Positions 9,503 through 35,699 of a stretch of 64,000 nt of DNA are shown here, one piece after another (position 1 is the first letter of the stretch; every line of letters starts with the position of its first letter). This DNA comes from a plasmid, in sequence record NZ_CP103541.1, one strand, 5' to 3'. Position numbers and translations under genes: made by a program. The notes below the pieces were generated by a model that saw nothing but the letters and a program-made list of their open reading frames with translations, ran no database searches and was not told the DNA's origin.

Positions 9503-10090
9503 TTCTGACTACTGCAGTGTTGTCCTGTCTGCCTGCGCACCTTCGGCTCCCGGCTGCCTGGCGGCATCCGGTCGTCAGGCCCGACTCCGACAGGCAGCTG
9601 CTGGCGCACCCGCCAGTCTCCGCCGAACCCGCTGGCGCGGTTTCGGGCTGTCGCTACGGTCCGATGCGTGAACCCCGGGCTTGCAGCGACCGAACGGTCG
9701 CGCCGCCTCTGTCGCGCCGTGGCCTGCGCTCCCGGCATCCCGGCAAAAGGCCGCCGGGATGTAAGGCGCAACGCCGTTTCGCGCACGCGCTCTCCGTCGT
9801 TGCGGCGGGTCCCTGCTCATTGCCTGCCGGGTGCCACACACCCGTATGAGTCCCTGTCGCCGGGGGCTGATACAGCCACAACCTGCCGCACTGACTGTCC
9901 AGGGTAAATGAACAGCCCACAAAATTTTTTACCCAAAACCCGGTAAAAAATTTTGCGTTCTGCCCCGGACAGGTGCGTCAGGCCGTGGCAGTGATGCCCC
10001 TTGCGGCGAAGGTTCTCAAACGGGTGAAGTTCATACCACAGGGAATACAGCAGCAGGTTCCCGCGAAACGTCAAAACCGCGGCTCCCGAA
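9503..10090 (+). promoter_or_regulatory. Frpo/ssi-like GC-rich repeat copy A (putative single-strand promoter for leading-region genes)
   Basis: About 570 bp, over 90% identical to 16535-17100 and to 33185-33616. Ends ...gttcccgcgaaacgtcaaaaccgcggctcccgaaactcaa. Sits upstream of + strand leading genes. Confidence 0.6.
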
Positions 10091-10336
10091 ACTCAACGGG
10101 TGATGTTCTTTAAAAATCAGGATTTATTTCAGGCTCCGGCAATACGCATTTATTTGTTCTGTCAGTCATCCGGCTGGCAGGTAATGAGAACGCAGGAACA
10201 GAAGGAGGAAAACACCGGAAAGCGTCAGATGCAGATATGAAAAAAGCAGGTCAGGGACCTGCTTAATCCACGCCGTAGAAATCGCCGCAATCGATTTTCA
10301 CGGCTTCACTAACCTGTGTCATAAGGAGTTTCATTT

Positions 10337-10567
10337 ATGACAGTAAGTATTGTTTCACCTTCCGCAGCGGCTGTAAAGCCCCGCCGTCATCCCCGTTTCA
10401 GACGCGAAGACATCCCCGCGCCGGAAATTGACCCCGTGCTGAAAGCCTTCGGGCGACACATAGCCCGGAGTTTTCACCGGGGGCGTGGTGTACACATCCC
10501 CGCCATGAAAAACACGGCCTTCGGGCAGGTGCTCCGCACACTCGAACTGAAACGCGCTTTTAACTGA
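10337..10567 (+). CDS. hypothetical basic small protein (76 aa), first gene after Frpo copy A
   Basis: Good RBS aaggag 7 nt before the ATG. Arg-rich. Confidence 0.45.
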   Translation: MTVSIVSPSAAAVKPRRHPRFRREDIPAPEIDPVLKAFGRHIARSFHRGRGVHIPAMKNTAFGQVLRTLELKRAFN

Positions 10568-12833: not shown

Positions 12834-12959
12834 CTGCTGCTCTGATTCTGACTACTGCAGTGTTGTCCTGTCTGCCGGGTCGGGTAGCAGCGGCACATTG
12901 CTGCGCCGCCGCCCCCTAAGAACGGAGCGTGCGAGTTTCCCCGCACTCCGCTCAAGCCT

Positions 12960-13746
12960 TTATAAGTGCTTTCGGTGAGCACCGGCTTCCCTGCTGTGTA
13001 ACTGTCGGTGGCAGTTCGGATGTAACAACTCGAGATTGGTCAGTTCGTCACTGCCGCCCATAACTTTCCTGATCCGGTGATGTATATTCCATCCGGTCTG
13101 GTTGGTTATGGGTTGTCCGCACTGCGGACAGTGTTTCCCCTGCCTCTTCCAGAGTTGAACTACTGTCTTCATCTTCTTTGATTTGCCTTTCCAGATTAGA
13201 TCCAGACGACGTTCAAAGTAGATTTCCATTCCGGGGGTGTATGGTGTTGCTTCGCCTTTGATTTTTATATGGCGCTTTATCGGTGTTTCCATTGCCCGGA
13301 AGAGAGTCAGAATTTTCCCTTCCGGGGTTATGGCTTTAAAGATCCAGCGCCTGCCTTCAAAGGAGAAGTATCGTCCGGCGATCCACCGCAATCCTTTTCG
13401 GGGGTGCCTTCTTACACACCATCGCCATATAGCTCGCCAGATTTGGGTGTCGACATAATTAAATGTTTCTTTCGCCACGACGTGTCGGTGATAGGTAGCC
13501 CATCCCCGGATTACCGGGTTTAGCTGGCCTATCAGTTTCCATGCCGGGAGCGTCGGATTGCGTTTAATTATTTCTCTGACTTTACAGAGGAAGTTCTTCA
13601 GGTTTTTCTTCGACGGTTTAATCAGCATTTTACCGTTGTACTTCCTGACGTTCTGCCCTAAAAAGTCGAAGCCTTTATCTATATGTGTAATCGCGGTTTT
13701 TTCTTCCGACAGTTCCAGCCCTCGTTCGCGCATGAAAGCTGCAATC
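12960..13746 (-). pseudogene. group II intron RT/maturase, C-terminal part (X/maturase and HNH domains: HPNCHRQLH)
   Basis: ORF 12960..13931 on the minus strand. True continuity is broken at the IS629 boundary 13746/13747. Confidence 0.7.
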
Positions 13747-13788
13747 TGAACCGCCCCGGGTTTCCTGGAGAGTGTTTTATCTGTGAAC

Positions 13789-14679
13789 TCAGGCTGCCAG
13801 ATCATCGTTTCCGATGGAAGCATAATAAGCTTTTTCTGCTTCTGCCGGAGGAGTATGGCCCAGCCTTTCCAGCAATCGTCGATTGTTATACCAGTCCACC
13901 CACGTGAGTGTGGCCAGTTCCACTTCTGCACGGTTTTTCCAGCTCTTACGGTGTATTACCTCCGCTTTGTAAAGACCATTGATGCTCTCCGCCATCGCGT
14001 TGTCATACGAGTCGCCTGTACTTCCTGTTGATGCCAGTAATCCGGCTTCCTTAAGCCGCTGTGTGTAGGCCAGCGATACATACTGAGAACCTTTATCACT
14101 GTGATGGACCGTGCCGGACGGTCGACGGGCCCATAACGCCTGCTCCAGTGCATCCAGCACGAATGTCGTTTCCATGGACGATGAGACCCGCCACCCCACG
14201 ATGTATCCGGCAAACACATCAATGATGAACGCCACATAGACGAAGCCCCGCCATGTGCTGACGTAAGTAAAATCAGCCACCCACAGCTGGTCAGGTCGTT
14301 CTGCCACGAACTGACGGTTTACGCGGTCGCCTGCGGCAACGGCTTTCCGGCTGATGGTCGTACGGACCTTTTTACCCCGGAGAACACCGGCAAGTCCCAT
14401 AACCGCCATGAGACGTGCCACAGTGCATCTGGCCACTCTGATACCTTCCCGTAACAACTGACGCCAGACTTTACGCACACCGTATACCTTGTGATTTTCA
14501 TCGTATACGCGCTGTATCTCTTTCTTCAGCCAGTCATCGCGCTGCGCACGGGCACTGCGTTTATCCGGATGATGTCGCTGTTGCTGACAGTGGTAATACG
14601 TTGACGGGGCAATATGCAGTTCGCTGCATAGCGGTCCGACCCCGTACTGCTCACGCAGCTTATCCAGCAGTGGCATCAT
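13789..14679 (-). CDS. IS629 OrfB (DDE transposase)
   Basis: 296-aa DDE-domain ORF overlapping orfA by 4 nt (the -1 frameshift arrangement of the IS3 family). Confidence 0.8.
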
Positions 14680-15002
14680 TTTTTCCAGAGGCGGTCGAAC
14701 TCCGCCTTCGCAAAATAAGCGGAAGCCTGGCGAAGGATATCGTTACTGCGGCGCAGTTCACGATTTTCACGTTCCAGCTCTTTCAGACGCTGACGTTCAG
14801 CGGTGGTGAGCCCTCCATCACCGCCCCCGGTATCCCGCTCATGCTGGCGAACCCAGACACGCAGAGTCTCCGGCGTACAGCCAATCTTTGGAGCAATGGA
14901 ACAAATTGTCGCCCATTGTGAGTCATATTCGCTCTGACTTTCCAGAACCATACGGACTGCCCGTTGACGGACTTCGGGGGAAAAACGAGTATTTTTAGTC
15001 AT
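14676..15002 (-). CDS. IS629 OrfA (transposase N-terminal, HTH)
   Basis: 108-aa ORF of IS3-family orfA type. Confidence 0.8.
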
Positions 15003-15056
15003 CCTGTTTACCTCTTTCTCAGGAAGTTTAGTCTCCAGGATTCCCGGGGCGGTTCA

Positions 15057-15940
15057 ATCAGTGGTCTGACCTCATTTTCCAGCAATTCACGGGAGCTGCC
15101 TGAACAGATGAAATCATCAGCATATCTCACATAATTCACCTGGTGCTTTGCACTGTGATAACCACTTTTCCTGAACGTTTGCATCAGTTCCTTCTCCAGT
15201 CCGTCCAGAGCCATGTTGGCGAGAACAGGGGATATGATGCCTCCCTGCGGTGTCCCGCTGTTCGTATGGTTAAACACGCCTCTTTCCATGTAACCTGCTT
15301 TCAACCATTTTTTAAGCAGTCTCCTGTCCATCGGAATATGGGAAAGCAGCCAGTCATGGCTGATGTTATCGAAACACCCTTTAATATCGCCCTCCAGTAT
15401 CCATTTGGGCGATACTTTCTGGCTCATCCGCAGAAAAATGGACTCAATGGCGTCATGCGTGCTGCGCATTGGTCTGAAACCATAGCTGTTATGGTCAGCA
15501 GTGGTCTCGGATACGGGTTCCAGAGCCAGCAGCCACAGTGCCTGCATGGCCCGGTCCCTCATTGTGGGTATGCCCAGCGGTCGCGTTTTGCCGTTTGATT
15601 TTGGGATATGTATTCGCCGTAGTGGCTGTGGCCTGTAACCACACAGATTCAGGCTGCATATTCCTTCCCATTTCTCCTTCGGTGTGTGCCATATTTTTCC
15701 GTCAATACCGGGTGTCCTTTTACCGGTATTTTCAGTTACACGCCTGACAGCCACGGCTTTGCCGGAGAATGAGCGGGTGAGGATGCGCTGTAGTTCTCTG
15801 ACCTGCCGCCATTGTTGCTGTCGGGTTGCCTTTGCAATCCGTAACTGTAGCTTTCGCACCCGGGCATGGCATGCTTTCCAGTCTATGGTGTGCCAGCCTG
15901 TCGGGTGGGGTATCGTGGACACACTGATGTGTGTATTCAT
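15057..15940 (-). pseudogene. group II intron reverse transcriptase, N-terminal part (RT domains 0-7, YADD motif)
   Basis: ORF 15008..15940 (minus) with RPLGIPTMRDRAMQ and VRYADDFI motifs, interrupted by IS629. Confidence 0.75.
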
Positions 15941-16534
15941 CTCGCTGATATCCTTTTGACTGCTTTACAGCTTTTCATGCAATTAAAGACCAGACGGAAG
16001 TCTGCCCGCTTTCGCGTCGGGGAACCTGCCCCGTATCCCGGTCATTACAACCGGGCATTTGCTTTTTCCGTCCTCCTCTGCCCGCACCGCCTACAGTGTT
16101 CCTTACGGTTCACCTGCCTGTAAGGCAGCGATACGGGTTTACCAGGTTCCGCTTAACATACAGAGGGTCAGGGCGGGTTCTGTCTCTTCACCGGGGGTCT
16201 CTGCGCCCATGTGCTCCCTGTGCGCGAGGTAGCAACCGGACCCCGTACCTTTTGGTTCAGGCCTGTCAGCATCTTTGGCCTGTTGCCGATAACGGTGTTT
16301 ATCAACAGTTCACATGTGTTAACCCTTCTGACCAGCCTTGCTCTCCTGCCACATGATGCTTGCAGCAAGGTAAAGCCCCTCACGGGGCTTTACCCGGGCT
16401 GACGCCCGGCTCTCGTTGTCCCGGGAGCTTCAGACCCCGCCGTTGCCGGCAGCGCCTGTCCCGGTAGGCTACAGCTAATGGGATAGCTGGTTTTATCAAT
16501 GTAAAACAATACGTTAAGCGACTTCCTGTCGCAC

Positions 16535-17100
16535 GCGCACCTTCGGCTCCCGGCTGCCTGGCGGCATCCGGTCGTCAGGCCCGACTCCGACAGGCAGCTG
16601 CTGGCGCACCTGCCAGTCTCCGCCGAACCCGCTGGCGCGGTTTCGGGCTGTCGCTACGGTCCGATGCGTGAAAACCCCGGGCTTGCAGCGACCGAACGGT
16701 CGCGCCGCCTCTGTCGCGCCGTGGCCTGCGCTCCTGGCATCCCGGCAAAAGGCCGCCGGGATGTGAGGGGCAACGCCGTTTCGCGCACGCGCTCTTCGTC
16801 GTTGCGGCGGGTGCCTGCCCGTTGTTGTGTCCGGTGCCATACACCTGTTTAAGCCCCTGTCGCCGGGGGCTGATACAGCCACAACCTGCCGCACTGACTG
16901 TCCAGGGTAAATGAACAGCCCACAAAATTTTTTACCCAAAACCCGGTAAAAAATTTTGCGTTCTGCCCAGGACAGGTGCGTCAGGCCGTGGCAGTGATGC
17001 CCCTTGCGGCGAGGGTTCTCAAACAGGTGATGGTGAATACCAGAGGGAACAAAAGGCAGGTCCCCGCAAAACGTCAAAACTGCGGCTCCCGAAACTCAAC
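16535..17100 (+). promoter_or_regulatory. Frpo/ssi-like repeat copy B, with the intron inserted at its left edge
   Basis: Near-identical to 9527-10090. Confidence 0.6.
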
Positions 17101-17601
17101 AGCTACCGTGTTCTGTCAAGAAAAAATCGCTTAAATTCAGTCGTACAGCCCTTAAGTACTGCCAGCAGGCTTGTCAGTACCAAGTTTCCGATACTGCGCG
17201 GCTACGCTAACGGGGTTAAAAGGGCTTACTTATACTACATCATCGCTGAAAGCTTGTATGGTTTCGCGGAACAGGGAGTAACAGGAGAATATTCACTCTC
17301 TACCGGCTAACAGTTAGCTTAATTGCAGTAACTGGTAACCAACTGCTAGAAAAATTCACCATGAATAATAATTGTGCTGATTACCTGCAATTATTGTAGT
17401 GAAATTTCTGTTCATATTTTTTCGCTAGCGATGTCTTGTTTGAGAAAAAACACTATTTGTTGAATAGTTTGATTCTGGTATTTGGAGTCTTTTAAAGGGG
17501 GATTCTATATGGATATCACTTTTTATATGTTGTAAATAATGCCGCTGTAGAAGAACAACGGCAAATGAAGGGGGGTATTGTTACAATAATCTTATTTGTC
17601 T

Positions 17602-18144
17602 CTATTTTTTATCCGAATCAGGTAGCAATTTAAAAGCTTTCAATATGGGGTAAAGTGTTTCATTCTCAAAGTTTTTTGCTAAATCAGTGAGGTGTTTTTT
17701 GATGTCATTGCTGGTAATGAGCTCAATTATGTGAGGAGTCCATTTGATATTATTGTCAATCAACACTTCAGAGTCCCAACTAGATGGTTTATAAAAAGCC
17801 ATGCAAGATAAAATAACTAGTCTCGTCTTCGATAAGAATGGTAATATATATAGTTTGGTACTGTTTATGTTAGGGTGTTTTGATTTTGCCTGCACAGTAA
17901 TTAAGTTATATGAGCAAGTTAGTAATGACTCAATACTAACAGGCGATAAGTAATATTCTGTAACCCACTTGTAATTGTCATCATCATCATAATCAATCCA
18001 CGTATTTATCCTGGCTAAAGTTGTTGCTAGGCCTCTGTTTTTTAGTTTCTTTACAGTCCTTTCCTTTTTCTCAGATTTGGCTTTTACGAATAAATCATCA
18101 TTATTTTTATCAACCCACTCAGCCAGGAGAGGCAATTTAGGAAC
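17602..18144 (-). pseudogene. AT-rich orphan ORF fragment, 5'-truncated by IS2
   Basis: 189-aa track ORF whose first codons lie inside the IS2 terminal repeat. GC is visibly low (about 30%). No homology recognised. Confidence 0.35.
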
Positions 18145-18155
18145 TGGATTTGCCC

Positions 18156-19061
18156 CTATATTTCCAGACACCTGTTATCACTTAACCCATTACTGGCCTG
18201 CTGCCGCAGATATTCCCGTGGCGAGCGATAACCCAGTGCACTATGCGGATGCCATTCGTTATAATGCTCGAACGCCTCTGCAAGGTTCTTTGCTGCCGTT
18301 AACCCGTCTGGTTTGGGCATGATACTGATGTAGTCACGCTTTATCGTTTTCACGAAGCTCTCTGCTATTCCGTTACTCTCCGGACTCCGCACCGCCGTGT
18401 TCTTCGGTTCAAGTCCCAACATCCGGGCGAACTGGCGTGTTTCATTAGCCCGGTAGCATGAACCATTATCCGTCAGCCACTCCACTGGAGACGACGGAAG
18501 ATCGTTGCCGAAGCGGCGTTCCACCGCTCCCAGCATGACGTCCTGTACTGTTTCACTGTTGAAGCCGCCGGTAGTGACCGCCCAGTGCAGTGCCTCACGA
18601 TCACAGCAGTCCAGCGCGAACGTGACACGCAGTCTCTCTCCGTTATCACAGCAGAACTCGAACCCGTCAGAGCACCATCGCTGATTGCTTTCTTTCACGG
18701 CCACTCTGCCTGTATGTGCCCGTTTCGATGGCGGTACAGCAGGTTTTCGCTCAAGCAACAGCGCATTCTGGCGCATGATCCGGTAAACACGTTTGGCATT
18801 GATCGCAGGCATACCATCAAGTTCTGCCTGTCTGCGAAGCAGCGCCCATACCCGACGATAACCATACGTGGGCAGCTCTCCGATAACATGGTGTATACGG
18901 AGAAGCACATCCGTATCATCAGTGTGACGACTGCGGCGGCCATCCATCCAGTCATCGGTTCGTCTGAGAATGACGTACAACTGCGCACGCAACACCCGGA
19001 GACAACGGCTGACTAAGCTTACTCCCCATCCCCGGGCAATAAGGGCGCGTGCGCTATCCAC
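18156..19061 (-). CDS. insD: IS2 InsD transposase (DDE)
   Basis: 301-aa [26 protein letters not shown], recognised as IS2 InsD. Confidence 0.85.
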
Positions 19062-19384
19062 TTTTTTGCACGCCCGTATTCAACGGCTTCTTTAAGGAGT
19101 TCATTTTCCATCGTTTTTTTGCCGAGCAGGCGCTGGAGTTCTTTAATCTGCTTCATGGCAGCAGCAAGTTCAGAGGCAGGAACGACCTGCTCTCCTGCGG
19201 CCACAGCAGTAAGACTTCCCTCCTGGTATTGCTTGCGCCAGAGAAATAACTGGCTGGCTGCCACACCGTGTTGCCGGGCAACAAGGGAGACCGTCATTCC
19301 CGGTTCAAAACTCTGCTGAACAATTGCGATCTTTTCCTGTGTAGTACGCCGTCTGCGTTTCTCCGGTCCTAAGACATCAATCAT
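19019..19384 (-). CDS. insC: IS2 InsC
   Basis: 121-aa [28 protein letters not shown], recognised as IS2 InsC. Confidence 0.85.
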
Positions 19385-19475
19385 CTGCTCTCCAATGACT
19401 AGTCTAAAAACTAGTATTAAGACTATCACTTATTTAAGTGATATTGGTTGTCTGGAGATTCAGGGGGCCAGTCTA

Positions 19476-20233
19476 TCCTCCCGCTGGAAATGCTGGAAAT
19501 TCTGCGCCGCATAGAAAAACGTGGCTCGCTGGAAAAACTGCGTAAGGTCCGCCAATACTGTAATCAGATTTTTCGTTATGCTATCGCCACCGGACGAGCC
19601 ACTGTCAATCCGGCATCTGAACTGACCAGTACGCTGGCGGCACCAAAAGCTGCGCATTTCCCCCACCTGAGAGCAGATGAGCTCCCTGTTTTTCTCCGGA
19701 AGCTCGCTGAATATCATGGCAGTCCTGTTACCCGCATGGCGACAAATCTTCTGCTTCTGACGGGTCTCAGAACCATTGAGCTACGGTCCGCTGAATGGTC
19801 AGAAATTGATTTTGATAATGCCCTGTGGACAATCCCTGAAAGCCGCATGAAAATGCGACGTAAACATGTCGTACCACTGTCACGACAGGCCACTGACATT
19901 CTGCTGCAGCTCAAAACTTTCTCCGAGCAATACCGACTGGTTTTTCCGGGACGTTGTGATATCAACAAGCCAATGAGCGAAGCCAGCATCAATATGGTGC
20001 TCAAACGTATCGGTTACGATGGCAGGGCAACCGGTCATGGTTTTCGTCACACCATGAGTACCATTCTGCACGAACAGGGCTTTAATTCTGCCTGGATTGA
20101 AATGCAGTTAGCTCATGTGGATAAAAATTCCATCAGGGGTACCTATAATCATGCCCTGTATCTCGATGGTCGCCGTGAAATGATGCAATGGTACGCTGAC
20201 TACATTGATTCACTTTCCAGCCAGGAGAGTTAA
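19476..20233 (+). pseudogene. int: P4-type tyrosine integrase, 5'-truncated by IS2 (C-terminal catalytic domain only)
   Basis: Begins exactly at the IS2 end. Motifs HGFRHT and LAH..Y fit a tyrosine recombinase C-terminus. Confidence 0.7.
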
Positions 20234-20317
20234 TTACACTTTGTCCTGAAATTATTCTCACAATCAATAACCTTTCCCTCTGATCTTACAGATCAGAGGG
20301 ATTCCGTTAACTTACAA

Positions 20318-20358
20318 TAAGTGATATTGGTTGTCTGGAGATTCAGGGGGCCAGTCTA
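20318..20358 (+). repeat. solo 41-bp copy of the IS2 left terminal repeat
   Basis: taagtgatattggttgtctggagattcagggggccagtcta is identical to 19435-19475. Confidence 0.6.
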
Positions 20359-20390
20359 ACGGTCTACTATAATAATTAGCAGGAGATAAT

Positions 20391-21401
20391 ATGTCACTTA
20401 AGGCGATTGCCACTGCACTCGGAGTTTCTGTCACCACTGTCAGTCGGGCTCTTGGAGGCTATGCAGATGTGTCAGCTTCCACCCGTGCACGGGTGGAAGC
20501 TGAAGCTCGTCGACGCGGCTACCGTCCTAATACTCAGGCAAGAAGACTCAAAACCGGTAAAACCGATGCTGTCGGTCTGGTTTATCCTGGACGTGATGTG
20601 CCATTTAACAGTGGTGTTTTTATGGATATGGTCAGTTGCATCAGCCGGGAACTTGCTCACCATGATATTGACTTACTACTGATAGCTGATGATGAGCATG
20701 CCGATTGCCACAGCTATATGCGGCTTGTTGAAAGTCGCAGGGTTGATGCTCTCATCATTGCACACACTCTGGATGACGATCCCCGTATCACACACCTTCA
20801 TAAAGCAGGTATTCCATTTCTGGCTCTTGGTCGGGTACCATCTGGTCTGCCCTGTGCGTGGTTTGACTTTGATAATCATGCCGGGACTGGACAGGCAACC
20901 CAGAAACTGATTGCTTTGGGACATAAACGTATTGCATTGTTGAGTGAAGACACTTCACATACCTATGTTATTGCAAGACGTCAGGGATGGCTTGATGCAC
21001 TGAATGAGCATGAACTGGAAGATACATGGCTGCGGCTGGTTTCTCCCACACGGCGAGCAGGATATCAGGCCGTGATGGAGTTAATGTCACTACCGATACC
21101 ACCAACAGCTATTATTACTGACAATGATCTGAGTGGAGATGGTGCTGCCATGGCGCTGCAGTTGAGCGGTCGTCTTTCAGGAAAAGCTGCGGTATCTCTG
21201 GTTGTATATGATGGTTTGCCACAGGACAGTATTATTGAGCTGGATGTAGCTGCAGTTATTCAGTCAACACGAAGCCTCGTTGGTCGCCAGATTTCCGAGA
21301 TGATATATCAGATAATTACTGATTCATCATCAAAACCACTACAGGTTGTCTGGAACCCGGTATTTTATCCGGGAAAGACGATTCATTCTCCTTGCTCCTG
21401 A
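20391..21401 (+). CDS. rafR: RafR raffinose operon repressor (LacI family)
   Basis: 336-aa LacI-family protein with N-terminal HTH MSLKAIATALGVSVTTVSRAL. Followed by rafA, rafB and rafD as in the pRSD2 raf operon. Confidence 0.75.
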   Translation: MSLKAIATALGVSVTTVSRALGGYADVSASTRARVEAEARRRGYRPNTQARRLKTGKTDAVGLVYPGRDVPFNSGVFMDMVSCISRELAHHDIDLLLIADDEHADCHSYMRLVESRRVDALIIAHTLDDDPRITHLHKAGIPFLALGRVPSGLPCAWFDFDNHAGTGQATQKLIALGHKRIALLSEDTSHTYVIARRQGWLDALNEHELEDTWLRLVSPTRRAGYQAVMELMSLPIPPTAIITDNDLSGDGAAMALQLSGRLSGKAAVSLVVYDGLPQDSIIELDVAAVIQSTRSLVGRQISEMIYQIITDSSSKPLQVVWNPVFYPGKTIHSPCS

Positions 21402-21496
21402 TTTTTTTATCCAGCTCACATATCCGAAACGTTTTGGTTGATACCCGAAACGTTTCGGATCAACAGTAAGGCATCCCTGAGAAAGGAGAATGTCTT

Positions 21497-23623
21497 ATGG
21501 TTTCAAAGTACTGCAGACTGAGCAGTCCTCGCTCTGATTTAATTATTAAAACCCATCCACATGCAGAAATTATCTGGTGGGGCTCTGCACTGAAACATTT
21601 CTCACCGGATGACTGTGCCAGCCTGGAAAGACCGGTTGCGAATGGTCGTCTGGATATTGATACGCCACTGACACTGATGGCTGAAAATGCCCTGGGACTT
21701 TTTAGCTCTCCGGGACTGGAAGGACACAGGAATGGGCTGGATTCATCTCCTGTTTTTTATACAGTTGACGTGGAACATACCGAAAACACTCTGAGACTTA
21801 CCAGTGAAGATTCGGTAGCCGGCCTGCGTCTGGTCAGCGAGCTGGTGATGACGCCATCAGGAATTCTGAAAGTTCGTCATGCACTGACCAACCTCAGAGA
21901 GGGGGACTGGCAGATAAATCGTTTCGCCATCACTTTACCTTTAGCGGAGCGTGCGGAAGAAGTCATGGCTTTTCACGGACGCTGGACTCGTGAATTTCAG
22001 CCGCACAGGGTACGTCTCACTCATGATGCTTTTGTTCTGGAAAATCGCAGAGGGCGGACATCTCATGAGCATTTTCCGGCGCTGATTGTCGGCACGCCAG
22101 GCTTCTCGGAACAACAGGGAGAGGTATGGGCTGTGCATCTGGGGTGGAGTGGAAATCACCGTATGAGATGTGAGGCAAAAACTGACGGCAGGCGTTACGT
22201 TCAGGCTGAGGCTCTGTGGATGCCGGGTGAGAAGGCTCTCAGGAAGAATGAAACCCTGTACACCCCGTGGCTATATGCCTGCCACTCTGCGGATGGCCTG
22301 AATGGAATGAGTCAGCAATACCATCGTTTTTTGCGTGATGAAATTATCCGTTTCCCTGAGCAAAAACCCCGCCCCGTACATCTCAATACCTGGGAAGGTA
22401 TTTATTTCAATCACAATCCTGATTACATCATGCAGATGGCTGAGCGTGCAGCAGCACTGGGCGTTGAACGTTTCATTATTGATGATGGCTGGTTTAAAGG
22501 ACGTAACGATGACCGCGCGGCTCTGGGCGACTGGTATACCGATGAACAGAAATACCCGAACGGGCTGATGCCGGTTATTAAACATGTGAAATCTCTCGGT
22601 ATGGAATTTGGCATATGGGTTGAGCCGGAAATGATTAACCCGGATTCTGACCTGTTTCGTCTTCATCCTGACTGGGTATTGTCAATGCCTGGATATTCCC
22701 AGCCAACCGGAAGATATCAGTATGTTCTTAACCTGAATATTCCTGAGGCCTTTGCTTACATTTATGAACGTTTCTCATGGTTACTGGGAGAACATCCGGT
22801 TGATTATGTGAAATGGGACATGAATCGTGAGCTTGTACAGGCAGGGCATGAAGGCCGTGCGGCAGCAGATGCACAGACCCGTCAGTTCTATCGATTGCTT
22901 GATCTCCTCCGTGAACGTTTTCCACATGTTGAGTTTGAGTCCTGTGCTTCCGGTGGGGGGCGTATTGACTTCGAAGTCCTGAAACGCACACACCGGTTCT
23001 GGGCATCTGACAATAATGATGCCCTGGAGCGCTGCACCATACAACGTGGCATGAGTTACTTTTTCCCTCCTGAGGTGATGGGGGCACATATTGGCCATCG
23101 CCGCTGCCATGCAACTTTCCGACAGCACAGCATCGCTTTTCGTGGGCTGACAGCATTGTTCGGCCATATGGGGCTGGAGCTGGATCCGGTGGCCGCAGAT
23201 GCGAAGGAATCTGACGGTTATCGCCGGTATGCCTTGCTCTATAAAGAATGGCGACAACTGATTCATACAGGTGTTCTCTGGCGTGTGGATATGCCAGATC
23301 CTTCGATACAGGTTCAGGGAGTCGTCAGCCCTGATCAGTCTCAGGCACTTTTTATGATCAGCCAGCTTGCAATGCCGGATTACACCTTACCAGGCATACT
23401 TCGTTTTCCCGGTCTGGCGGCGGAAGTGCGTTACCGGCTTCGGGTTATTGATCACCCGGACCTCCAGGTGGTCGGTGAAGGCGGTCATACCATGCGCAAA
23501 TTACCTGTCTGGATGAATCAGAGCCTTGAGGCCAGTGGTGAATGGCTGGCACAGGGAGGGATTCAGCTCCCCGTACTGGATCCGGAGAGTGCGATTTTGA
23601 TAGCACTTGAAAGAGCTGTGTGA
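21497..23623 (+). CDS. rafA: alpha-galactosidase RafA (GH36)
   Basis: 708-aa protein. RBS aaggag lies 7 nt before ATG 21497. Confidence 0.8.
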   Translation: MVSKYCRLSSPRSDLIIKTHPHAEIIWWGSALKHFSPDDCASLERPVANGRLDIDTPLTLMAENALGLFSSPGLEGHRNGLDSSPVFYTVDVEHTENTLRLTSEDSVAGLRLVSELVMTPSGILKVRHALTNLREGDWQINRFAITLPLAERAEEVMAFHGRWTREFQPHRVRLTHDAFVLENRRGRTSHEHFPALIVGTPGFSEQQGEVWAVHLGWSGNHRMRCEAKTDGRRYVQAEALWMPGEKALRKNETLYTPWLYACHSADGLNGMSQQYHRFLRDEIIRFPEQKPRPVHLNTWEGIYFNHNPDYIMQMAERAAALGVERFIIDDGWFKGRNDDRAALGDWYTDEQKYPNGLMPVIKHVKSLGMEFGIWVEPEMINPDSDLFRLHPDWVLSMPGYSQPTGRYQYVLNLNIPEAFAYIYERFSWLLGEHPVDYVKWDMNRELVQAGHEGRAAADAQTRQFYRLLDLLRERFPHVEFESCASGGGRIDFEVLKRTHRFWASDNNDALERCTIQRGMSYFFPPEVMGAHIGHRRCHATFRQHSIAFRGLTALFGHMGLELDPVAADAKESDGYRRYALLYKEWRQLIHTGVLWRVDMPDPSIQVQGVVSPDQSQALFMISQLAMPDYTLPGILRFPGLAAEVRYRLRVIDHPDLQVVGEGGHTMRKLPVWMNQSLEASGEWLAQGGIQLPVLDPESAILIALERAV

Positions 23624-23685
23624 AGAGAGGTACGGAGCCTCAGCTCCGTCCTGTTTCTCAATATTATCCCGTGAGGGTAAGAATA

Positions 23686-24963
23686 ATGAATTCTGCAAGT
23701 ACGCATAAAAATCCCGATTTCTGGATTTTCGGTCTGTTCTTCTTTCTCTACTTTTTCATCATGGCAACCTGTTTTCCGTTTTTGCCTGTATGGCTGTCCG
23801 ATGTGGTCGGGCTGAGTAAAACGGATACAGGTATAGTCTTTTCATGTCTTTCTCTGTTTGCCATCAGTTTCCAGCCATTGCTTGGGGTCATATCAGATCG
23901 CCTGGGACTGAAAAAAAACCTGATCTGGAGTATCAGCCTGTTACTGGTATTTTTCGCCCCCTTTTTTTTATATGTATTTGCGCCCCTGCTGCGCTTCAAT
24001 ATCTGGGCAGGCGCACTGACTGGCGGTGTTTTTATTGGTTTTGTGTTTTCTGCAGGTGCCGGAGCTATTGAAGCTTATATAGAGCGGGTCAGTCGCAGTC
24101 GTGGATTTGAATACGGTAAAGCGAGGATGTTCGGGTGTCTGGGCTGGGCGTTATGTGCGACTATGGCTGGAATGCTTTTTAATGTCGATCCTTCTCTGGT
24201 TTTCTGGATGGGGTCAGGAGGCGCATTATTGTTGCTTCTTCTGTTGTTTCTGGCGCGCCCCAGTACCAGCCAGACGGCAATGGTTATGAATACACTGGGT
24301 GCCAATTCTTCCCTGATTTCGACCAGAATGGTCTTCAGCCTGTTTCGCATGCGTCAGATGTGGATGTTTGTTCTCTACACGATTGGTGTGGCCTGTGTCT
24401 ATGATGTATTTGATCAGCAGTTTGCCACATTTTTTCGTTCATTCTTTGACACTCCTCAGGCAGGAATAAAAGCATTCGGATTTGCTACCACTGCGGGGGA
24501 GATTTGTAATGCCATTATCATGTTCTGTACACCATGGATAATTCATCGCATTGGTGCCAAAAATACCCTGCTTGTTGCGGGGGGAATTATGACCATCCGC
24601 ATTACCGGTTCTGCTTTTGCCACCACCGCGACAGAAGTGGTGATTCTGAAAATGCTTCACGCTCTTGAAGTTCCATTTTTGCTGGTTGGGGCGTTCAAAT
24701 ATATTACGGCAGTGTTTGACACCCGACTGTCAGCGACCGTTTATTTAATAGGTTTTCAGTTTTCCAAACAACTTGCTGCAATACTTCTCTCTACCTTTGC
24801 CGGCCACCTGTATGATCGTATGGGATTCCAGAATACGTATTTTGTGCTCGGGATGATTGCTCTGACTGTTACCGTGATATCAGCTTTCACGCTGAGTTCT
24901 TCCCGCGGGAGCGTACACCCTTCTGTAGAAAAAGCCCCTGCAGCGCATTCGGAGATTAACTGA
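23686..24963 (+). CDS. rafB: raffinose permease RafB (LacY-family MFS)
   Basis: LacY-like N-terminus NPDFWIFGLFFFLYFFIMATCFPFLPVWL. Start taken at ATG 23686 (track start 23620). Confidence 0.8.
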   Translation: MNSASTHKNPDFWIFGLFFFLYFFIMATCFPFLPVWLSDVVGLSKTDTGIVFSCLSLFAISFQPLLGVISDRLGLKKNLIWSISLLLVFFAPFFLYVFAPLLRFNIWAGALTGGVFIGFVFSAGAGAIEAYIERVSRSRGFEYGKARMFGCLGWALCATMAGMLFNVDPSLVFWMGSGGALLLLLLLFLARPSTSQTAMVMNTLGANSSLISTRMVFSLFRMRQMWMFVLYTIGVACVYDVFDQQFATFFRSFFDTPQAGIKAFGFATTAGEICNAIIMFCTPWIIHRIGAKNTLLVAGGIMTIRITGSAFATTATEVVILKMLHALEVPFLLVGAFKYITAVFDTRLSATVYLIGFQFSKQLAAILLSTFAGHLYDRMGFQNTYFVLGMIALTVTVISAFTLSSSRGSVHPSVEKAPAAHSEIN

Positions 24964-26393
24964 TGAAACAGCGTCTTGCTTTGGCACAGTCCGCCCTTGA
25001 AAAACTTTGCGCACGTCGTGGTAATGCCTGGTACCCGATTTTTCATCTGGCTCCACCTGCCGGCTGGATGAATGATCCAAATGGCCTTATTTACTTCAAT
25101 GGGCGTTACCATGCGTTCTTCCAGCATCATCCTGCAAGCGCATATCAGGGGCCAATGCACTGGGGGCATGCCACCAGTACCGACATGTTGCACTGGCAAC
25201 ACGAACCTGTCGCGCTGGCACCCGGAGATAAATATGATCGTGATGGCTGTTTTTCAGGGAGTGCCGTGGATGATGATGGCGTGCTATCACTTATTTATAC
25301 TGGTCATATTTGTCTCGAAGATCGTGGTAATGACAGCATTATCCGTGAAGTACAGTGTCTGGCTACCAGTCATGATGGTATTCACTTTGAGAAGCAGGGC
25401 TGTGTGCTGACACCTCCGGAAGGTATCATGCATTTCCGTGATCCCAAAGTCTGGCACGAAGAAGGCTCCTGGTGGATGGTCATTGGTGCCCGGGACGCTT
25501 CTGACAATGGGCAAGTTCTGTTGTATCGCGGGACATCTTTGCGGGACTGGCATCTGGAGCATGTTCTCGCTCATTCCGCAGCCGGAGAAAGTTATATGTG
25601 GGAATGCCCCGATTTCTTCAGGTGTGGTAATTTTCACTGGCTGATGTTCTCACCACAGGGGATGACCCCTTCCGGTTATCGGTTCCGTAACCTTTTTCAG
25701 AGCGGTGTGTTGGCAGGGAGCTGGAAGCCTGGTTCTGTCTTTGCGCTGAAAGGGGGATTTGAAGAGCTGGATTATGGTCATGACTTTTATGCTCCACAGT
25801 CCATGCTGGCTGAGGACGGCAGGCGTATCATTATGGCATGGATGAATATGTGGGATTCACCCGTGCCCACCCGCAGTGAAGCCTGGGCAGGATGTCTGAC
25901 GCTGCCCAGAGAGGTTTTTGAGCGCGATGGCCGGCTGTGCCAGCGACCTGTGCGTGAAGTCGAATCTCTGCGCAGAAAATGCCAGCCATTATCCCCTGTA
26001 AGGTTACAGGGTTTGCAATTACTGACCGAAAATGTACAGGCCGCAGAATTATTGGTGACGTGGCATACGGTTGACAGTCATGCGGAGCACTATGGCGTCC
26101 GCCTTGGAGACGGTCTGCGACTTTATGTGGATAATCAGGCCGGACGACTGGTACTGTGGCGCTATTACCCTGAGGAAGGGCTGGATGGTTACCGCAGTGT
26201 TGAACTTCCTGATACAGAATATCTGACTCTTCGTATTTTCCTGGATCGTTCATCTGTTGAAGTGTTTGTTAACGATGGTGAGGCAACCTTATCAAGTCGT
26301 ATTTATCCGCAAGCGGACTCGAGACAATTATCGTTATATGCCGCTCATGGCGATGCGATATTAACTAATGGCACTTTATGGATGCTGACCTGA
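24963..26393 (+). CDS. rafD: sucrose-6/raffinose invertase RafD (GH32)
   Basis: GH32 motifs WMNDPNG and RDP. Confidence 0.8.
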   Translation: MKQRLALAQSALEKLCARRGNAWYPIFHLAPPAGWMNDPNGLIYFNGRYHAFFQHHPASAYQGPMHWGHATSTDMLHWQHEPVALAPGDKYDRDGCFSGSAVDDDGVLSLIYTGHICLEDRGNDSIIREVQCLATSHDGIHFEKQGCVLTPPEGIMHFRDPKVWHEEGSWWMVIGARDASDNGQVLLYRGTSLRDWHLEHVLAHSAAGESYMWECPDFFRCGNFHWLMFSPQGMTPSGYRFRNLFQSGVLAGSWKPGSVFALKGGFEELDYGHDFYAPQSMLAEDGRRIIMAWMNMWDSPVPTRSEAWAGCLTLPREVFERDGRLCQRPVREVESLRRKCQPLSPVRLQGLQLLTENVQAAELLVTWHTVDSHAEHYGVRLGDGLRLYVDNQAGRLVLWRYYPEEGLDGYRSVELPDTEYLTLRIFLDRSSVEVFVNDGEATLSSRIYPQADSRQLSLYAAHGDAILTNGTLWMLT

Positions 26394-26587
26394 GATATAT
26401 CGATATCAGTATTTTTTTTGATATTATCTGTCATTACTTTGCCAGTACACATTAATTATCTTTGCTGTGTGCTTTTGGTAATGTGTTGCGATTATATATA
26501 CCAGTCTGGTGAAGAGTATGAATGGTATTTTGTGTTGATACAGAGAATATAAGAGTACCCACATTTGTTTTTATTTAAGGGGGTAAA

Positions 26588-27982
26588 ATGAATAAGTTAC
26601 TCTTGGGTTTGTCTGTTTTTTTATTACTGGAATACAATGCGTGTGCAGCAAAAACAGGGGGGCTAACGCTTGAACAAAGAATGGCATTGCTGGAAGAACG
26701 CCTGGAAGCTGCAGAAAAAAGGGCGGAAAAAGCAGAAAGAATGTTAAAAAGTTTTGATACAGAACAACATTCTGAAATACGTCAAATTAGTTCAGAGCAG
26801 AATAAAAAAGCTGCTAACAGCTATGCAGTAGTTGAGTCAACAAAAGAAAAAACATCTTCTCCAGGTTTTCTGCTCTCTGGTTACAATGATTTGAAGTTTT
26901 ATGGTGATGTGGAGTTTAATATAGATGCTGCCAGTAAACCCGGTCAGTTAGTAATGATAAGTTCCGGGGCGAACAGTGAGTCAGTGAATGAACGGTGGGA
27001 CCTTAATGGCCGTATTCTATTAGGTTTTGACGGTACCCGTAAGCTTGATAATGGTTATTTCGCTGGATTTTCAGCACAACCACTGGCGGATATGCACGGT
27101 TCAGTGAATATTGATGATGCATTATTCTTTTTTGGAAAAGATGACGAGTGGAAAGTGAAAGTCGGTCGTTTTGAAGCTTACGATATGTTCCCTCTAAATC
27201 AGGATACTTTCATTGAGTATTCCGGTAATACAGCTAACGATATTTATGCTGATGGCCGTGGTTATATCTATATGATGAAAGAGGGACGCGGTCGTTCTGA
27301 CGCTGGTGGTAATTTCCTCATCAGTAAACAACTCGATAACTGGTATTTTGAGTTAAACACGTTACTTGAAGACGGAACATCTTTATATAATAACGGTAAT
27401 TATCATGGACGATATATGGAGCAGCAGAAAAATGTCGCTTATCTGCGCCCGGTAATTGCCTGGTCGCCAACGGAAGAATTCACAGTCTCCGCAGCGATGG
27501 AAGCAAACGTGGTAAAAAATGCTTATGGCTATACCGATAATAAGGGGAATTTTGTCGATCAGTCCAATCGTTCCGGTTATGGTATTAGCATGACATGGAA
27601 CGATCTGAAAACAGATCCGGAAAATGGCATCGTGGTTACTCTTAATACCGCCTATTTGGATGCCAGTAATGAGAAAGATTTCACTGCCAGTATTAATGCT
27701 CTGTGGAAACGTTTCGAACTGGGTTATATCTACGCACATAATAAGATTGATGAATTTAGTGGTGTCGTGTGTAATAATGGTTGCTGGATTGATGGTGAAG
27801 GAATATACAACATTCACACCATTCATGCATCTTATCAGTTTGCTAATGTGATGGATATGGAGAACTTTAATATTTACCTCGGGGCTTATTACTCAATTCT
27901 GGATAGTAACTGTAGATATAGTAATTGTGACATTACCGATGATCGTTACGGTGCCCGATTACGTTTCAAATACTTTTTTTGA
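26588..27982 (+). CDS. rafY: raffinose glycoporin RafY (ScrY/LamB-like)
   Basis: Signal peptide, coiled-coil N-terminal extension, C-terminal Phe (beta-barrel signature). Confidence 0.7.
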   Translation: MNKLLLGLSVFLLLEYNACAAKTGGLTLEQRMALLEERLEAAEKRAEKAERMLKSFDTEQHSEIRQISSEQNKKAANSYAVVESTKEKTSSPGFLLSGYNDLKFYGDVEFNIDAASKPGQLVMISSGANSESVNERWDLNGRILLGFDGTRKLDNGYFAGFSAQPLADMHGSVNIDDALFFFGKDDEWKVKVGRFEAYDMFPLNQDTFIEYSGNTANDIYADGRGYIYMMKEGRGRSDAGGNFLISKQLDNWYFELNTLLEDGTSLYNNGNYHGRYMEQQKNVAYLRPVIAWSPTEEFTVSAAMEANVVKNAYGYTDNKGNFVDQSNRSGYGISMTWNDLKTDPENGIVVTLNTAYLDASNEKDFTASINALWKRFELGYIYAHNKIDEFSGVVCNNGCWIDGEGIYNIHTIHASYQFANVMDMENFNIYLGAYYSILDSNCRYSNCDITDDRYGARLRFKYFF

Positions 27983-28388
27983 TGCATAGTAACAAAGTAT
28001 TGTTCCACACTTACATTAACGCGTTTTTCGGGTACACCATCGGTGAGCATACGAATAATCGCTGTCTGTCGATGGTTGATTTAATTTATTGCGCAACGAG
28101 CCAGCTACCGGGAACTGGCTCTGAAGTTGCGTCAGGTCACGAAGTACTGCCCGGGGAATAATGCCAGACTAACTCTGACCAGTGCCACTTGACGTCTCCG
28201 CCAGCGCAGCGGAGGCAAATAGTACTGTCAGACCGTGGGCTTATCCCCGCGCGGAGCGGTACAATGACGGTGATAACCGTCAACCATACTGCGAAATATT
28301 TGCCCCGGCGTGTCACCCAGAGTGCACAGATAGGGTGATGCTGCCAACTTACTGATTTAGTGTATGATGGTGTTTTTGAGGTGCTCCA

Positions 28389-28664
28389 GTGGCTTCTGTT
28401 TCTATCAGCTGTCCCTCCTGTTCAGCTACTGACGGGGTGGTGCGTAACGGCAAAAGCACCGCCGGACATCAGCGCTATCTCTGCTCTCACTGCCGTAAAA
28501 CATGGCAACTGCAGTTCACTTACACCGCTTCTCAACCCGGTACGCACCAGAAAATCATTGATATGGCCATGAATGGCGTTGGATGCCGGGCAACTGCCCG
28601 CATTATGGGCGTTGGCCTCAACACGATTTTACGTCACTTAAAAAACTCAGGCCGCAGTCGGTAA
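28389..28664 (+). CDS. insA: IS1 InsA
   Basis: [32 protein letters not shown], recognised as IS1 InsA. Confidence 0.85.
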
Positions 28665-29082
28665 CCTCGCGCATACAGCCGGGGACGTCATCGTCTGCGC
28701 GGAAATGGACGAACAGTGGGGCTATGTCGGGGCTAAATCGCGCCAGCGCTGGCTGTTTTACGCGTATGACAGTCTCCGGAAGACGGTTGTTGCGCACGTA
28801 TTCGGTGAACGCACTATGGCGACGCTGGGGCGTCTTATGAGCCTGCTGTCACCCTTTGACGTGGTGATATGGATGACGGATGGCTGGCCGCTGTATGAAT
28901 CCCGCCTGAAGGGAAAGCTGCACGTAATCAGCAAGCGATATACGCAGCGAATTGAGCGGCATAACCTGAATCTGAGGCAGCACCTGGCACGGCTGGGACG
29001 GAAGTCGCTGTCGTTCTCAAAATCGGTGGAGCTGCATGACAAAGTCATTGGGCATTATCTGAACATAAAACACTATCAATAA
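28583..29082 (+). CDS. insB: IS1 InsB (expressed as an InsAB' frameshift fusion)
   Basis: Two overlapping track ORFs (28583..28840 and 28705..29082) matching IS1 InsB. Confidence 0.75.
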
Positions 29083-29097
29083 GTTGGAGTCATTACC

Positions 29098-29721
29098 ATG
29101 TTAAAGATAATAAAACAACACAAATTTGCTTTTCTTTTCACAGCACTGCTGAGCACCTTCTTTCTCAATATGTTTCCACCGAGCGCTGCAGGGTACGAGT
29201 TGAATACCGTGCTGCAGATTGTGGCGGGCGTTAATCTGTTGCAGCGTCGCTATCAGGTCGTTTCATTTATTGTGTTGCTGATAATGTTTGTCACCACACA
29301 CTGGCTGCATCCCGTCAATGCCATGATACAGCTGTACTACGGGAGTTATCTGGTCTTTTTCATCATTCTGTCAGTGATTGTGTTCCGCCAGGTGATTTTC
29401 TCCGCCCGGATAAACACAGAGTCCATCTGCGCTGCACTAAGTGGCTTTCTGCTTATTGGCTATATAGGGTTTTTCATGTTTTCTGCGATAGAAAATCATA
29501 TGCCTGGCGCGTTCCGTGGACTGTCAAATGATGAGTTGCAGATGATGAATGAACTTTTTTATTATTCTTTTATCAGTATTCTGACCGTAGGCTATGGCGA
29601 TATTGTTGCCGTCAGCTGGCCGGCTCGTAATGCCACTATTCTGGTTATTCTCACGGGCTATATTTACTCACTGGTCTTTATTGCCCGCATCGTCAGTGGA
29701 TTTTCGGTCTCAGAAAAATAA
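29098..29721 (+). CDS. putative small K+ channel-family membrane protein (TVGYGD selectivity-filter motif)
   Basis: 207-aa hydrophobic protein with the filter signature TVGYGD. The ATG directly abuts the IS1 end, so the N-terminus may be truncated. Confidence 0.5.
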   Translation: MLKIIKQHKFAFLFTALLSTFFLNMFPPSAAGYELNTVLQIVAGVNLLQRRYQVVSFIVLLIMFVTTHWLHPVNAMIQLYYGSYLVFFIILSVIVFRQVIFSARINTESICAALSGFLLIGYIGFFMFSAIENHMPGAFRGLSNDELQMMNELFYYSFISILTVGYGDIVAVSWPARNATILVILTGYIYSLVFIARIVSGFSVSEK

Positions 29722-29817
29722 CTCTTTGTACCAGCTACCAGTCGGCTGTACTACGGGTTCCTGAGTCCGGCAAAACGGCATCGTGTATCGTTCCGGTCGA
29801 GTAGGCAGCCTAACCCG

Positions 29818-30080
29818 ACCACTGAAAACGTCGCGGCAGAGCTGAAGCTGCTGACGGAAAATTGCTGCGATAGTGGGATTTCTCTGGGAGGTGGATCGCC
29901 GCACGACTGCGCGAAAGGAATTGCGTTGGTCGCAACCAATGGTGGAAATATTCGTGATTATGAAGGTGTTGATCGTTCCGCGAAACCGCTGCTGCCAATG
30001 ATTGCGATTAACACCACTGCGGGTACGGCTTCGGAAATGACCCGTTTCTGTATTATGGGGTCAGTTTGGATATCGGAACT
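29818..30080 (+). pseudogene. internal fragment of an iron-containing alcohol dehydrogenase
   Basis: Translation ...[36 protein letters not shown]...[15 protein letters not shown] is the Fe-ADH metal/NAD region, without its N- or C-terminus. Confidence 0.55.
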
Positions 30081-30345
30081 TATTGTACTATAAGGGCTTC
30101 CCCGGCATGTCAACGCCGGTTTTATAGTTTCTGTCTGCTCGTCAGTAAAATAAAGGGGAGAGACTGCGGTACTATAAACGGCCATGATGAATCGTTATCG
30201 ATTCGGGCCCTGATGAAAGACGCGCGTGAGGTTCTTGTTCGTTAAGCGGATACGTATATCCTGTACAATAGCCAGATAGGCCTCACGGGGTCTAACCCTT
30301 TTTCATCAACGAGTTGCAGGTCAGATGGTTATACTGCTTTGTGCT

Positions 30346-30714
30346 TTAGCTGGCTGAGTACAGCCTGAAATCATCACCGTAATGCAACGATGCCCAGCAC
30401 AGCCTCGCGTTTTTGGCGGCGATGGCTACAACAGCCCGCCAGTACCCCCTGCGCTCAACCAACGTACAAACCCAACGGCTGAATGAGTCAGTCCTTTTCT
30501 CTGCACCAATCAAAACCGAACGGGCCCCCTGAACCAGAAGCGTTCGCAGATATGAATCGCCCGCTTTCGTTATTCTGCCAAGCTTTGATTTTCCGCCACT
30601 GCTGTACTGTGATGGTGTAAGTCCCAGCCAGGCTGCCAGTTGGCGTCCATTCTTAAAATCATGGCGTTGACAAGGCAAGTATGGCAGCCAGAGAGGCCGG
30701 TTGCGTATTTTCAT
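30346..30714 (-). pseudogene. IS110-family transposase, C-terminal fragment only
   Basis: FKNGRQLAAWLGLTPSQYSSGGKSKLGRITKAGDSYLRTLL is the conserved IS110/IS116/IS902 C-terminal domain. The N-terminal domain is absent. Confidence 0.55.
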
Positions 30715-30735
30715 GAAAGGAGATCAGTGAAGGTA

Positions 30736-31017
30736 ATTTAAAAACGGTTCTGTGAAAGTGACACGAACCGATCTCCATCGATGTTACTCACCGATCTCCT
30801 TCACGGTAATACGCACCGGTCACGCTGTCCGTGAGATGGAGCGGTGGATGGTGCCGAACAAACTCCGGGAGGCAGCGTGATGCGGCAACAATCACACAGA
30901 TTACCCGTAAACAGTCTGAATGAGCGGGTTATTTTCAGGAAAAGTGAGTGTGGTCAGCGTGCAGGGATATGGGCTATGATGTGCCCGGCGCTTGAGGCTT
31001 TCTGCCTCATGACGTGA
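30736..31017 (+). pseudogene. psiA: probable psiA 3' remnant (open frame entering from the truncation point and ending ...CPALEAFCLMT)
   Basis: Position immediately upstream of the hok/flmA promoter, as in F. The open frame begins abruptly at the island boundary. Identity is inferred, not verified. Confidence 0.4.
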
Positions 31018-35690: not shown

Positions 35691-35699
35691 TTTTCCACC

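Follow-up and report, generated by a model that had tools for sequence, protein, structure and literature searches.

What has become of ssb and psiB in the leading region of the IncF plasmid in sequence record NZ_CP103541.1? In the 64,000 nucleotides of this record that were analysed (hereafter the window), the place that these genes occupy in plasmid F, downstream of a promoter repeat of the Frpo type, is taken by DNA of other origin. A sequence-only reading of positions 17100-20360 had listed six elements there, namely the Frpo repeat (copy B), AT-rich DNA, a truncated open reading frame (ORF), the insertion sequence (IS) IS2, an integrase fragment and a solo IS2 end, all of which lie where that reading had placed them, and had proposed that IS2 mediated both a deletion and the capture of foreign DNA. 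The analysis described here favours, with a probability of roughly 80%, a multi-step, IS-associated replacement of the gene block that is controlled by the Frpo2 promoter in a leading region of the F/R100 type. PsiB and the plasmid SSB (the protein that binds single-stranded DNA) are textbook 'core' functions of leading regions and have been proposed as targets against plasmid spread.

Positions 15000-23000 of the window match CP137937.1 completely by megablast (100%), and an alignment of the whole window with this record contains no mismatches and two small indels. CP137937.1 is a 142,969-bp plasmid of Escherichia coli 2023CK-00004 with IncFIA/FIB/FIC/FII replicons, a MOBF relaxase and an MPF_F mating system, and it was used as a proxy for the part of the replicon outside the window. 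The window is an IncF (FIA/FIB/FII) resistance plasmid of E. coli that is nearly identical to CP137937.1; the plasmid lineage carries NDM-5 and CTX-M-15. The gene order runs from repE, sopA and sopB through plus-strand leading-region genes to the replaced region and the raf operon, followed by IS1, hok, a DUF932 gene and gene X and finally by oriT, traM and the tra operon. The minus strand of the window is the one that is transferred; the leading genes on the plus strand are thus read from the strand that enters the recipient.

The missing Frpo2-controlled genes

The F sequence upstream of ssb matches the window three times, at 9667-10105 (copy A), 16673-17102 (copy B) and 33083-33637 (copy C). 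The core of copy B is 92.4% identical to F 58174-58603, and its minus (transferred) strand is predicted to form one long hairpin (-123.2 kcal/mol, z = -8.07). The promoter would thus form on the transferred strand and fire towards higher coordinates. Identity to F and to the R100-like CP010174 ends exactly at 17102, which places the left backbone breakpoint, as mapped against more than 5,000 plasmids and by alignment, at 17102/17103. In F and CP010174 the ATG of ssb lies 39-40 bp past the equivalent point; in the window, the breakpoint abuts 1,042 bp of orphan DNA, and no IS end is located there. Downstream of copy B there is no plus-strand ORF of at least 60 codons before the integrase remnant, and IS2 lies in antisense orientation. 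The hairpin of copy B is intact but orphaned, with no cognate genes downstream.

A stretch of approximately 4.07 kb is missing from the backbone: ssb, yubL/yfjA (a DUF905 gene), yfjB (a ParB-like gene), psiB and, counted from its start, ~88% of psiA. Searches by tblastn with the F proteins SSB, YubL, ParB-like protein, PsiB, PsiA and Hok recovered only a C-terminal remnant of PsiA and hok in the window, in CP137937.1 and in pM217_FII (AP018147, F2:A-:B-), a plasmid with an identical module. With the queries SSB, YubL, ParB-like protein and PsiB, the E-values of matches in the window and the whole of CP137937.1 did not fall below 0.4, and the whole of pM217_FII gave no match at E <= 0.01. The annotations of CP137937.1 and pM217_FII list neither ssb nor psiB, and the Prokaryotic Genome Annotation Pipeline (PGAP) reports a psiA pseudogene. 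The proposed absence of ssb and psiB from the slot is therefore upheld by searches of both the window and the near-identical full plasmid. A second record of the same strain, CP137936.1 ('plasmid unnamed1'), was considered as a source of psiB in trans and rejected: it is labelled as a plasmid, yet its 365 kb include the core chromosomal genes nap, ccm, fru and yej, and it looks like a mislabelled piece of chromosome.

The replaced slot extends from 17103 to ~30674 (13.7 kb if counted to 30815), so that the span covered by the sequence-only reading is its first quarter; the slot is indeed filled with foreign DNA, and this filling extends to the complete raf operon, IS1 and further fragments (Table 1). 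The right breakpoint lies at ~30675 within the last ~30 codons of psiA, next to the 5'-truncated IS110-family fragment, and these C-terminal codons are what is left of the regulon, ssb and psiB being absent. In-silico removal of a short ISEc12 derivative restores the psiA sequence from ~30675 to its stop at 30880. ISEc12 was considered as the agent of the right-hand deletion and rejected, as both of its ends and its own CCGGT duplication lie inside psiA, which marks a later simple insertion. A comparison of synteny with F and CP010174, both of which display the canonical layout, returned the same two breakpoints (17102 and ~30675).

On the oriT side of the slot the backbone continues. Window positions 32520-35825 are 97.6% identical to F, and copy C, the homologue of Frpo1, is 90% identical to F Frpo2 over its repeat core. 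It is followed by ygeA and ygeB (DUF932) and the unit adjoins oriT, as expected of the Frpo1 unit. The plasmid has kept this Frpo1-ygeA-ygeB unit as well as hok, the anti-restriction genes and the complete tra region. By comparison with F, the loss that comes with the module coincides exactly with the Frpo2 regulon and spares the Frpo1 unit.

Table 1. Features of the replaced region and the adjoining backbone (window coordinates).
Feature	Position	Strand	Details
Frpo-type repeat unit, copy B	16535-17102	-	Homologue of F Frpo2, the single-stranded DNA (ssDNA) promoter upstream of ssb; hairpin core 16673-17102
AT-rich non-coding DNA	17103-17601		499 bp; GC content 0.383
Orphan gene remnant	17602-18144	-	180 codons; N-terminus cut off by IS2
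IS2, complete	18145-19475	-	1331 bp; right inverted repeat (IRR) at 18145, left inverted repeat (IRL) at 19475
raf island block	19474-28112	+	int', IS2 relic, rafR 20391-21401, rafA 21497-23623, rafB, rafD, rafY (to 27982)
P4-type tRNA-Phe island integrase, 3' part	19476-20233	+	Residues 143-394 of 394; 99% identical to the GPEC1054 integrase
Solo IS2 left end	20318-20358	-	41 bp; exact copy of 19435-19475; tip faces rafR
IS1	28333-29100	+	768 bp; annotation and matches to IS1 pieces
Ion-channel gene (Ion_trans_2), then alcohol-dehydrogenase gene fragment	29098-29721	+	Pfam match; PGAP pseudogene notes in pM217_FII; foreign cargo
IS110-family transposase gene fragment	30150-30663	-	Lacks N-terminus (5'-truncated); abuts right backbone breakpoint
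psiA remnant	30675-30701 and 30816-30880	+	Last ~30 codons; tblastn match; PGAP psiA pseudogene
mini-ISEc12 (IS21 family)	30702-30815		114 bp; first 25 bp and last 99 bp of ISEc12; flanked by CCGGT duplication
Retained oriT-proximal unit	33083-34885	+	Frpo copy C 33083-33637; ygeA-like ORF 33658-33945; DUF932/ygeB-like gene 33983-34885

Several further observations concern the Frpo repeats and hok. A group II intron occupies the minus strand at 12880-16523 (Rfam matches at 12879-12955 and 16341-16490) and is positioned exactly at the start of the repeat unit of copy B; its ltrA gene is split by an IS3 copy (ORFs at 13789-15002). In the related plasmid pLZ135-CTX, intact copies of the intron lie upstream of both repeat units A and B, which suggests that it homes to a site inside the Frpo repeat. 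Just downstream of copy A, Rfam reports AS-pc01 (antisense to pHK01_035) at 10241-10342 on the minus strand. Near the other end of the slot, an IS150 at ~31085-32527 is inserted upstream of mok and hok (32634-32759), ~13 bp from the start of the former and ~110 bp from the latter, where it separates the hok mRNA leader and the sok region from the toxin gene; this IS150 is absent in pM217_FII. The hok/sok (flm) killer system of the window plasmid may be inactive or deregulated.

Spread of the module and consequences for recipients

At least 137 PLSDB plasmids share the left junction, and at least 127 contain the right one. Among 5,426 complete E. coli genomes, 167 contain the orphan fragment, nearly always on plasmids, and the lineage has been recovered from human, animal, food and water sources. 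In pM217_FII, the counterparts of window positions 16524-31084 and 32528-35825 are 99.96% and 99.9% identical, respectively, with the same breakpoints, while outside 16524-35825 identity falls to 91-94% on the left (distal leading region) and to ~80% on the right (traM/traJ). Given this sharp step, the module and the oriT-proximal leading region were exchanged between IncF backbones by homologous recombination. Literature searches retrieved no paper on this specific module or on missing ssb/psiB in these plasmids.

What the loss means for a recipient can be approached through work on F. There, ssb, yfjA, yfjB, psiB and psiA are expressed early, from an ssDNA template, under the control of Frpo2, and ygeA and ygeB under that of Frpo1 (PMC9849209). 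Deletion of Frpo2, ssb or psiB leaves the frequency of transconjugants unchanged, deletion of ssb delays the first plasmid duplications, and Frpo1 together with ygeA is far more important than the Frpo2 block (PMC9849209). By extrapolation from this literature, the strand that enters a recipient of the window plasmid would yield neither plasmid SSB nor PsiB or PsiA, probably resulting in a stronger transient SOS response and slower first rounds of replication, and possibly in lower transfer in some hosts. The changed establishment in recipients that had been predicted from the sequence is thus plausible in its direction; it does not amount to a disabling loss, since pM217_FII with its identical module was transferred by conjugation (PMC5598989). 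In our reading, the loss is tolerated and would represent no barrier to spread, conjugation still being functional. A widespread conjugative NDM-5/CTX-M-15 lineage that lacks the Frpo2 regulon and retains Frpo1-ygeA-ygeB agrees with the laboratory deletions in F. It also calls for caution, as not every F-like plasmid can be assumed to suppress the SOS response of its recipient, and a stronger recipient response could affect the activity of integrons and IS elements after transfer.

Whether the loss has itself been favoured is a separate matter. Dropping the Frpo2 regulon might cut the cost of the plasmid, or the raf cargo might compensate for it, with vertical persistence being favoured in high-risk clones. 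Such adaptive loss would fit the abundance and varied sources of the lineage, its NDM-5 and CTX-M-15 genes, the movement of the module between backbones and the finding that an evolved 16-kb leading-region deletion including psiA and psiB lowered plasmid cost (PMC10976473). However, psiB itself did not explain that reduction in cost (PMC10976473), and hitch-hiking with resistance genes accounts for the abundance equally well; we regard the proposal as doubtful. It is unlikely, too, that the orphaned Frpo2-type promoter is still active and has been re-purposed, or that loss of the Frpo2 regulon is a selected, cost-lowering state in epidemic carbapenemase plasmids. No plus-strand intrinsic terminator is predicted between 17103 and 20450. 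If the promoter were active, it would give rise to an early transient transcript, antisense to both the orphan gene and the transposase gene of IS2, that might extend as far as rafR; such a transcript could silence IS2 or prepare the cell for the use of raffinose as the plasmid enters. If the loss were selected, the lineage would constitute a natural experiment in which PsiB, SSB and PsiA are dispensable in the wild.

Origin of the inserted DNA

The larger part of the slot can be traced to a chromosomal island. The raf block is colinear with the chromosome of E. coli GPEC1054 at 98.85% identity over 8,641 bp, where the island comprises tRNA-Phe (pheU-side, next to dsbD/dicD), the integrase gene, rafR, rafA, rafB, rafD and rafY. 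The plasmid-borne integrase fragment contains the catalytic domain (PF00589, E = 8e-27) and lacks the arm-binding domain along with one half of the central domain; the N-terminal PF13356, found at residues 3-88 of the full chromosomal orthologue, is missing. As the fragment starts at residue 143, the plasmid copy is a pseudogene. A tRNA-Phe gene lies 176 bp upstream of the integrase gene in GPEC1054, but not on the plasmid. A chromosomal donor with IS2 inside int was not found: the IS2::int junction occurs in 165 of the complete genomes, a count that agrees with that of the plasmid lineage, and the 30 best-scoring records are all plasmid-sized.

IS2 itself is complete. Its overlapping minus-strand ORFs at 19019-19429 and 18156-19061 correspond to orfA and orfB with a programmed -1 frameshift, its terminal arms (18153-18185 and 19434-19466) are 79% complementary where inverted repeats of ~41 bp are expected, and the copy in pM217_FII, which is 100% identical, is annotated by PGAP as an intact 'IS3-like element IS2 family transposase, programmed frameshift'. 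The element is flanked by GGAAC and TCCTC and hence lacks a 5-bp target duplication, and its flanks differ in source, with the orphan gene on one side and the integrase gene on the other. The missing duplication reflects rearrangement after insertion, not a lack of membership in IS2. Because of these hybrid flanks, IS2 must have taken part in the rearrangement, joining the orphan fragment to the raf island.

The solo IS2 end, for which no match would be expected by chance, has a different history. It had been taken for a product of this rearrangement, but the GPEC1054 chromosome contains the same left-end relic between int and rafR, with one mismatch and an 8-bp deletion relative to the perfect 41 bp of the plasmid. 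The int-relic-rafR junction is found in 446 of the 5,426 genomes, far above the plasmid lineage alone, and the solo end therefore predates the plasmid rearrangement. GPEC1054 also carries a 293-bp relic of an IS2 right end just after rafY, beside IS1 fragments (9793-10563 of the compared stretch). The tips of the left- and right-end relics both face the raf operon, which suggests that it once lay between two directly repeated IS2 copies, as in an old IS2-raf-IS2 composite transposon. Two further candidates were rejected. A single 2.2-kb transposing unit made up of IS2, int' and the solo IRL (18145-20358) shows no duplication at its outer flanks (GGAAC/ACGGT), and an 18-nt direct repeat (18120-18137 and 20218-20235) was taken as a coincidence, its 12-nt exact core being expected ~0.35 times in 3.4 kb.

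The DNA to the left of IS2 is of more distant origin. The AT-rich fragment is almost confined to this plasmid lineage, with 169 places on plasmids and four on chromosomes in megablast searches of the complete genomes. Enterobacter DNA aligns only to 17533-18096, at 72-73%, so that 17533-17601 is the sole homologous part of the non-coding stretch, which also holds a predicted minus-strand terminator of the orphan ORF (17540-17563). Rfam reported no family inside 17103-20360 at gathering thresholds. The orphan ORF lacks ~37-44 N-terminal residues in comparison to a 224-aa homologue, and only five homologues were found among 5.8 billion proteins searched. These include the 224-aa protein, which stands alone beside folA-apaH-type genes, and an incomplete protein of Enterobacter cloacae, encoded at the end of a contig with sigma-factor and DsbD/DsbC-type genes as neighbours. 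Over 180 residues, the ORF is also 64% identical to the C-terminus of a 490-aa protein of Pseudescherichia vulneris with a Peptidase_C14 (caspase) domain, the gene of which (3071-4543 of the compared locus) follows the gpR tail-completion gene and lies upstream of baseplate genes in a P2-like prophage. The orphan ORF may be what is left of an accessory or defence gene carried by a phage.

For the assembly of these pieces, the following steps can be proposed. IS2 would have joined the orphan fragment to the raf island, either through homologous recombination between two IS2 copies or through an intramolecular IS2 event. The backbone breakpoints would stem from illegitimate recombination or later trimming, because neither lies at an IS terminus; mini-ISEc12 inserted into the psiA stump at a later time. 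On this account, nothing but known elements went into the mosaic, which is of an ordinary, IS-associated kind and occurs in a well-sampled lineage.

The IS2-mediated deletion and capture put forward by the sequence-only reading would be simpler: an IS2 near ssb or psiB deletes the genes by intramolecular transposition and is left at the scar together with captured DNA. The absent target duplication and flanks of different origin are a signature of IS-mediated rearrangement or of recombination between two copies, and a second IS2 end is close by; the part of the proposal that assigns IS2 a role in the rearrangement thus stands. Yet a single adjacent deletion should leave an IS2 end directly on backbone sequence, whereas foreign DNA separates IS2 from the left breakpoint (1,042 bp) and from the right one (11 kb), and the solo end was inherited from the raf island. 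Since IS2 touches neither backbone breakpoint, such a deletion alone cannot explain the loss of ssb and psiB, and we consider it quite improbable as the single cause.

It is very improbable that ssb and psiB moved to another place on the replicon or that a functional analogue took over from them, a candidate for such an analogue being a 68-aa ORF at 33427-33633. This ORF and a frameshifted twin at ~16911-17134 are labelled 'single-stranded DNA-binding protein' in GenBank and RefSeq. Both are located inside Frpo repeats, which are non-coding, and neither has BLASTP similarity to F SSB or a match in Pfam or NCBIfam, including the OB-fold (oligonucleotide/oligosaccharide-binding fold) domain of bacterial SSB (PF00436); for the 68-aa ORF, a threshold as lax as E <= 100 still produced no alignment. 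Its 68 residues are moreover too few for an OB-fold SSB, and the tblastn results given above speak against a copy elsewhere in the window, CP137937.1 or pM217_FII. The SSB label on these ORFs is regarded as an annotation error, one that would hide the loss of ssb in automated gene-presence surveys. An assembly artefact, for which a region rich in IS copies and repeats offers classic sites of mis-joining, can practically be dismissed, as many laboratories have independently recorded the same junctions, which recur in at least 127-137 complete plasmids and 165-167 complete genomes, and both backbone breakpoints lie outside repeats.

Several points nevertheless weigh against a multi-step replacement that is tolerated by the plasmid. 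The absence of the genes over the 79 kb outside the window rests on the near-identical CP137937.1, with its two small indels. No intermediate was found, be it a plasmid that combines the orphan fragment with intact ssb/psiB or a chromosome in which IS2 occupies this position of int. Megablast against the complete E. coli genomes yielded no source for 17103-17532. As regards transfer, the donor strain of pM217_FII also has an IncI1 plasmid (PMC7193042), which might supply PsiB or SSB in trans from the donor, and deletion of psiB lowered the conjugation of the IncF cointegrate pL53T, unlike that of F (PMC10976473; PMC9849209); transfer of pL53T was restored by psiB supplied in the recipient (PMC10976473).

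Comparison with known systems

The closest relatives of the module are pM217_FII and related F2:A-:B- blaNDM IncFII plasmids, which contain the same module and a 99.9% identical oriT-proximal leading region. The window plasmid differs from pM217_FII in its distal leading region, in traM/traJ and in its extra FIA/FIB replicons, as well as in the group II intron split by IS3 and the IS150 upstream of hok. As pM217_FII lacks the intron, IS3 and IS150, these are later insertions in the window plasmid. With the chromosomal tRNA-Phe raf island of GPEC1054 and the classical Raf plasmids, the window has the integrase gene, the IS2 IRL relic and rafR-rafA-rafB-rafD-rafY in common. In comparison to the GPEC1054 island, a complete IS2 truncates the integrase gene of the plasmid at codon 143, nothing remains of the tRNA side and the IRL relic is the better preserved.

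In its backbone, the window follows the F and R100-type leading region (Masai & Arai 1997; Couturier et al. 2023, PMC9849209). On one side of the slot, the order of sopAB, methylase, DUF1380, anti-restriction, DUF3560 and methyltransferase genes and Frpo copy B is the same, as is, on the other side, that of the psiA stump, hok, Frpo copy C, the ygeA-like gene, the DUF932 gene, gene X, oriT and traM, and the hairpin-forming ssDNA promoter repeats are kept at 90-92%. Unlike in F and R100, the whole Frpo2 block (ssb, yubL, the parB-like gene, psiB and most of psiA) has been swapped for 13.7 kb of foreign DNA. Deletions of ssb-psiBA have been described as frequent in IncF33 plasmids (PMC10654068), and in these as well as in evolved pL53T (PMC10976473) ssb-parB-psiBA are lost while replication and, mostly, transfer are kept. 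Those are simple deletions of sporadic or laboratory origin, whereas here the block has been replaced with metabolic cargo and the replacement has become fixed in a widespread natural lineage.

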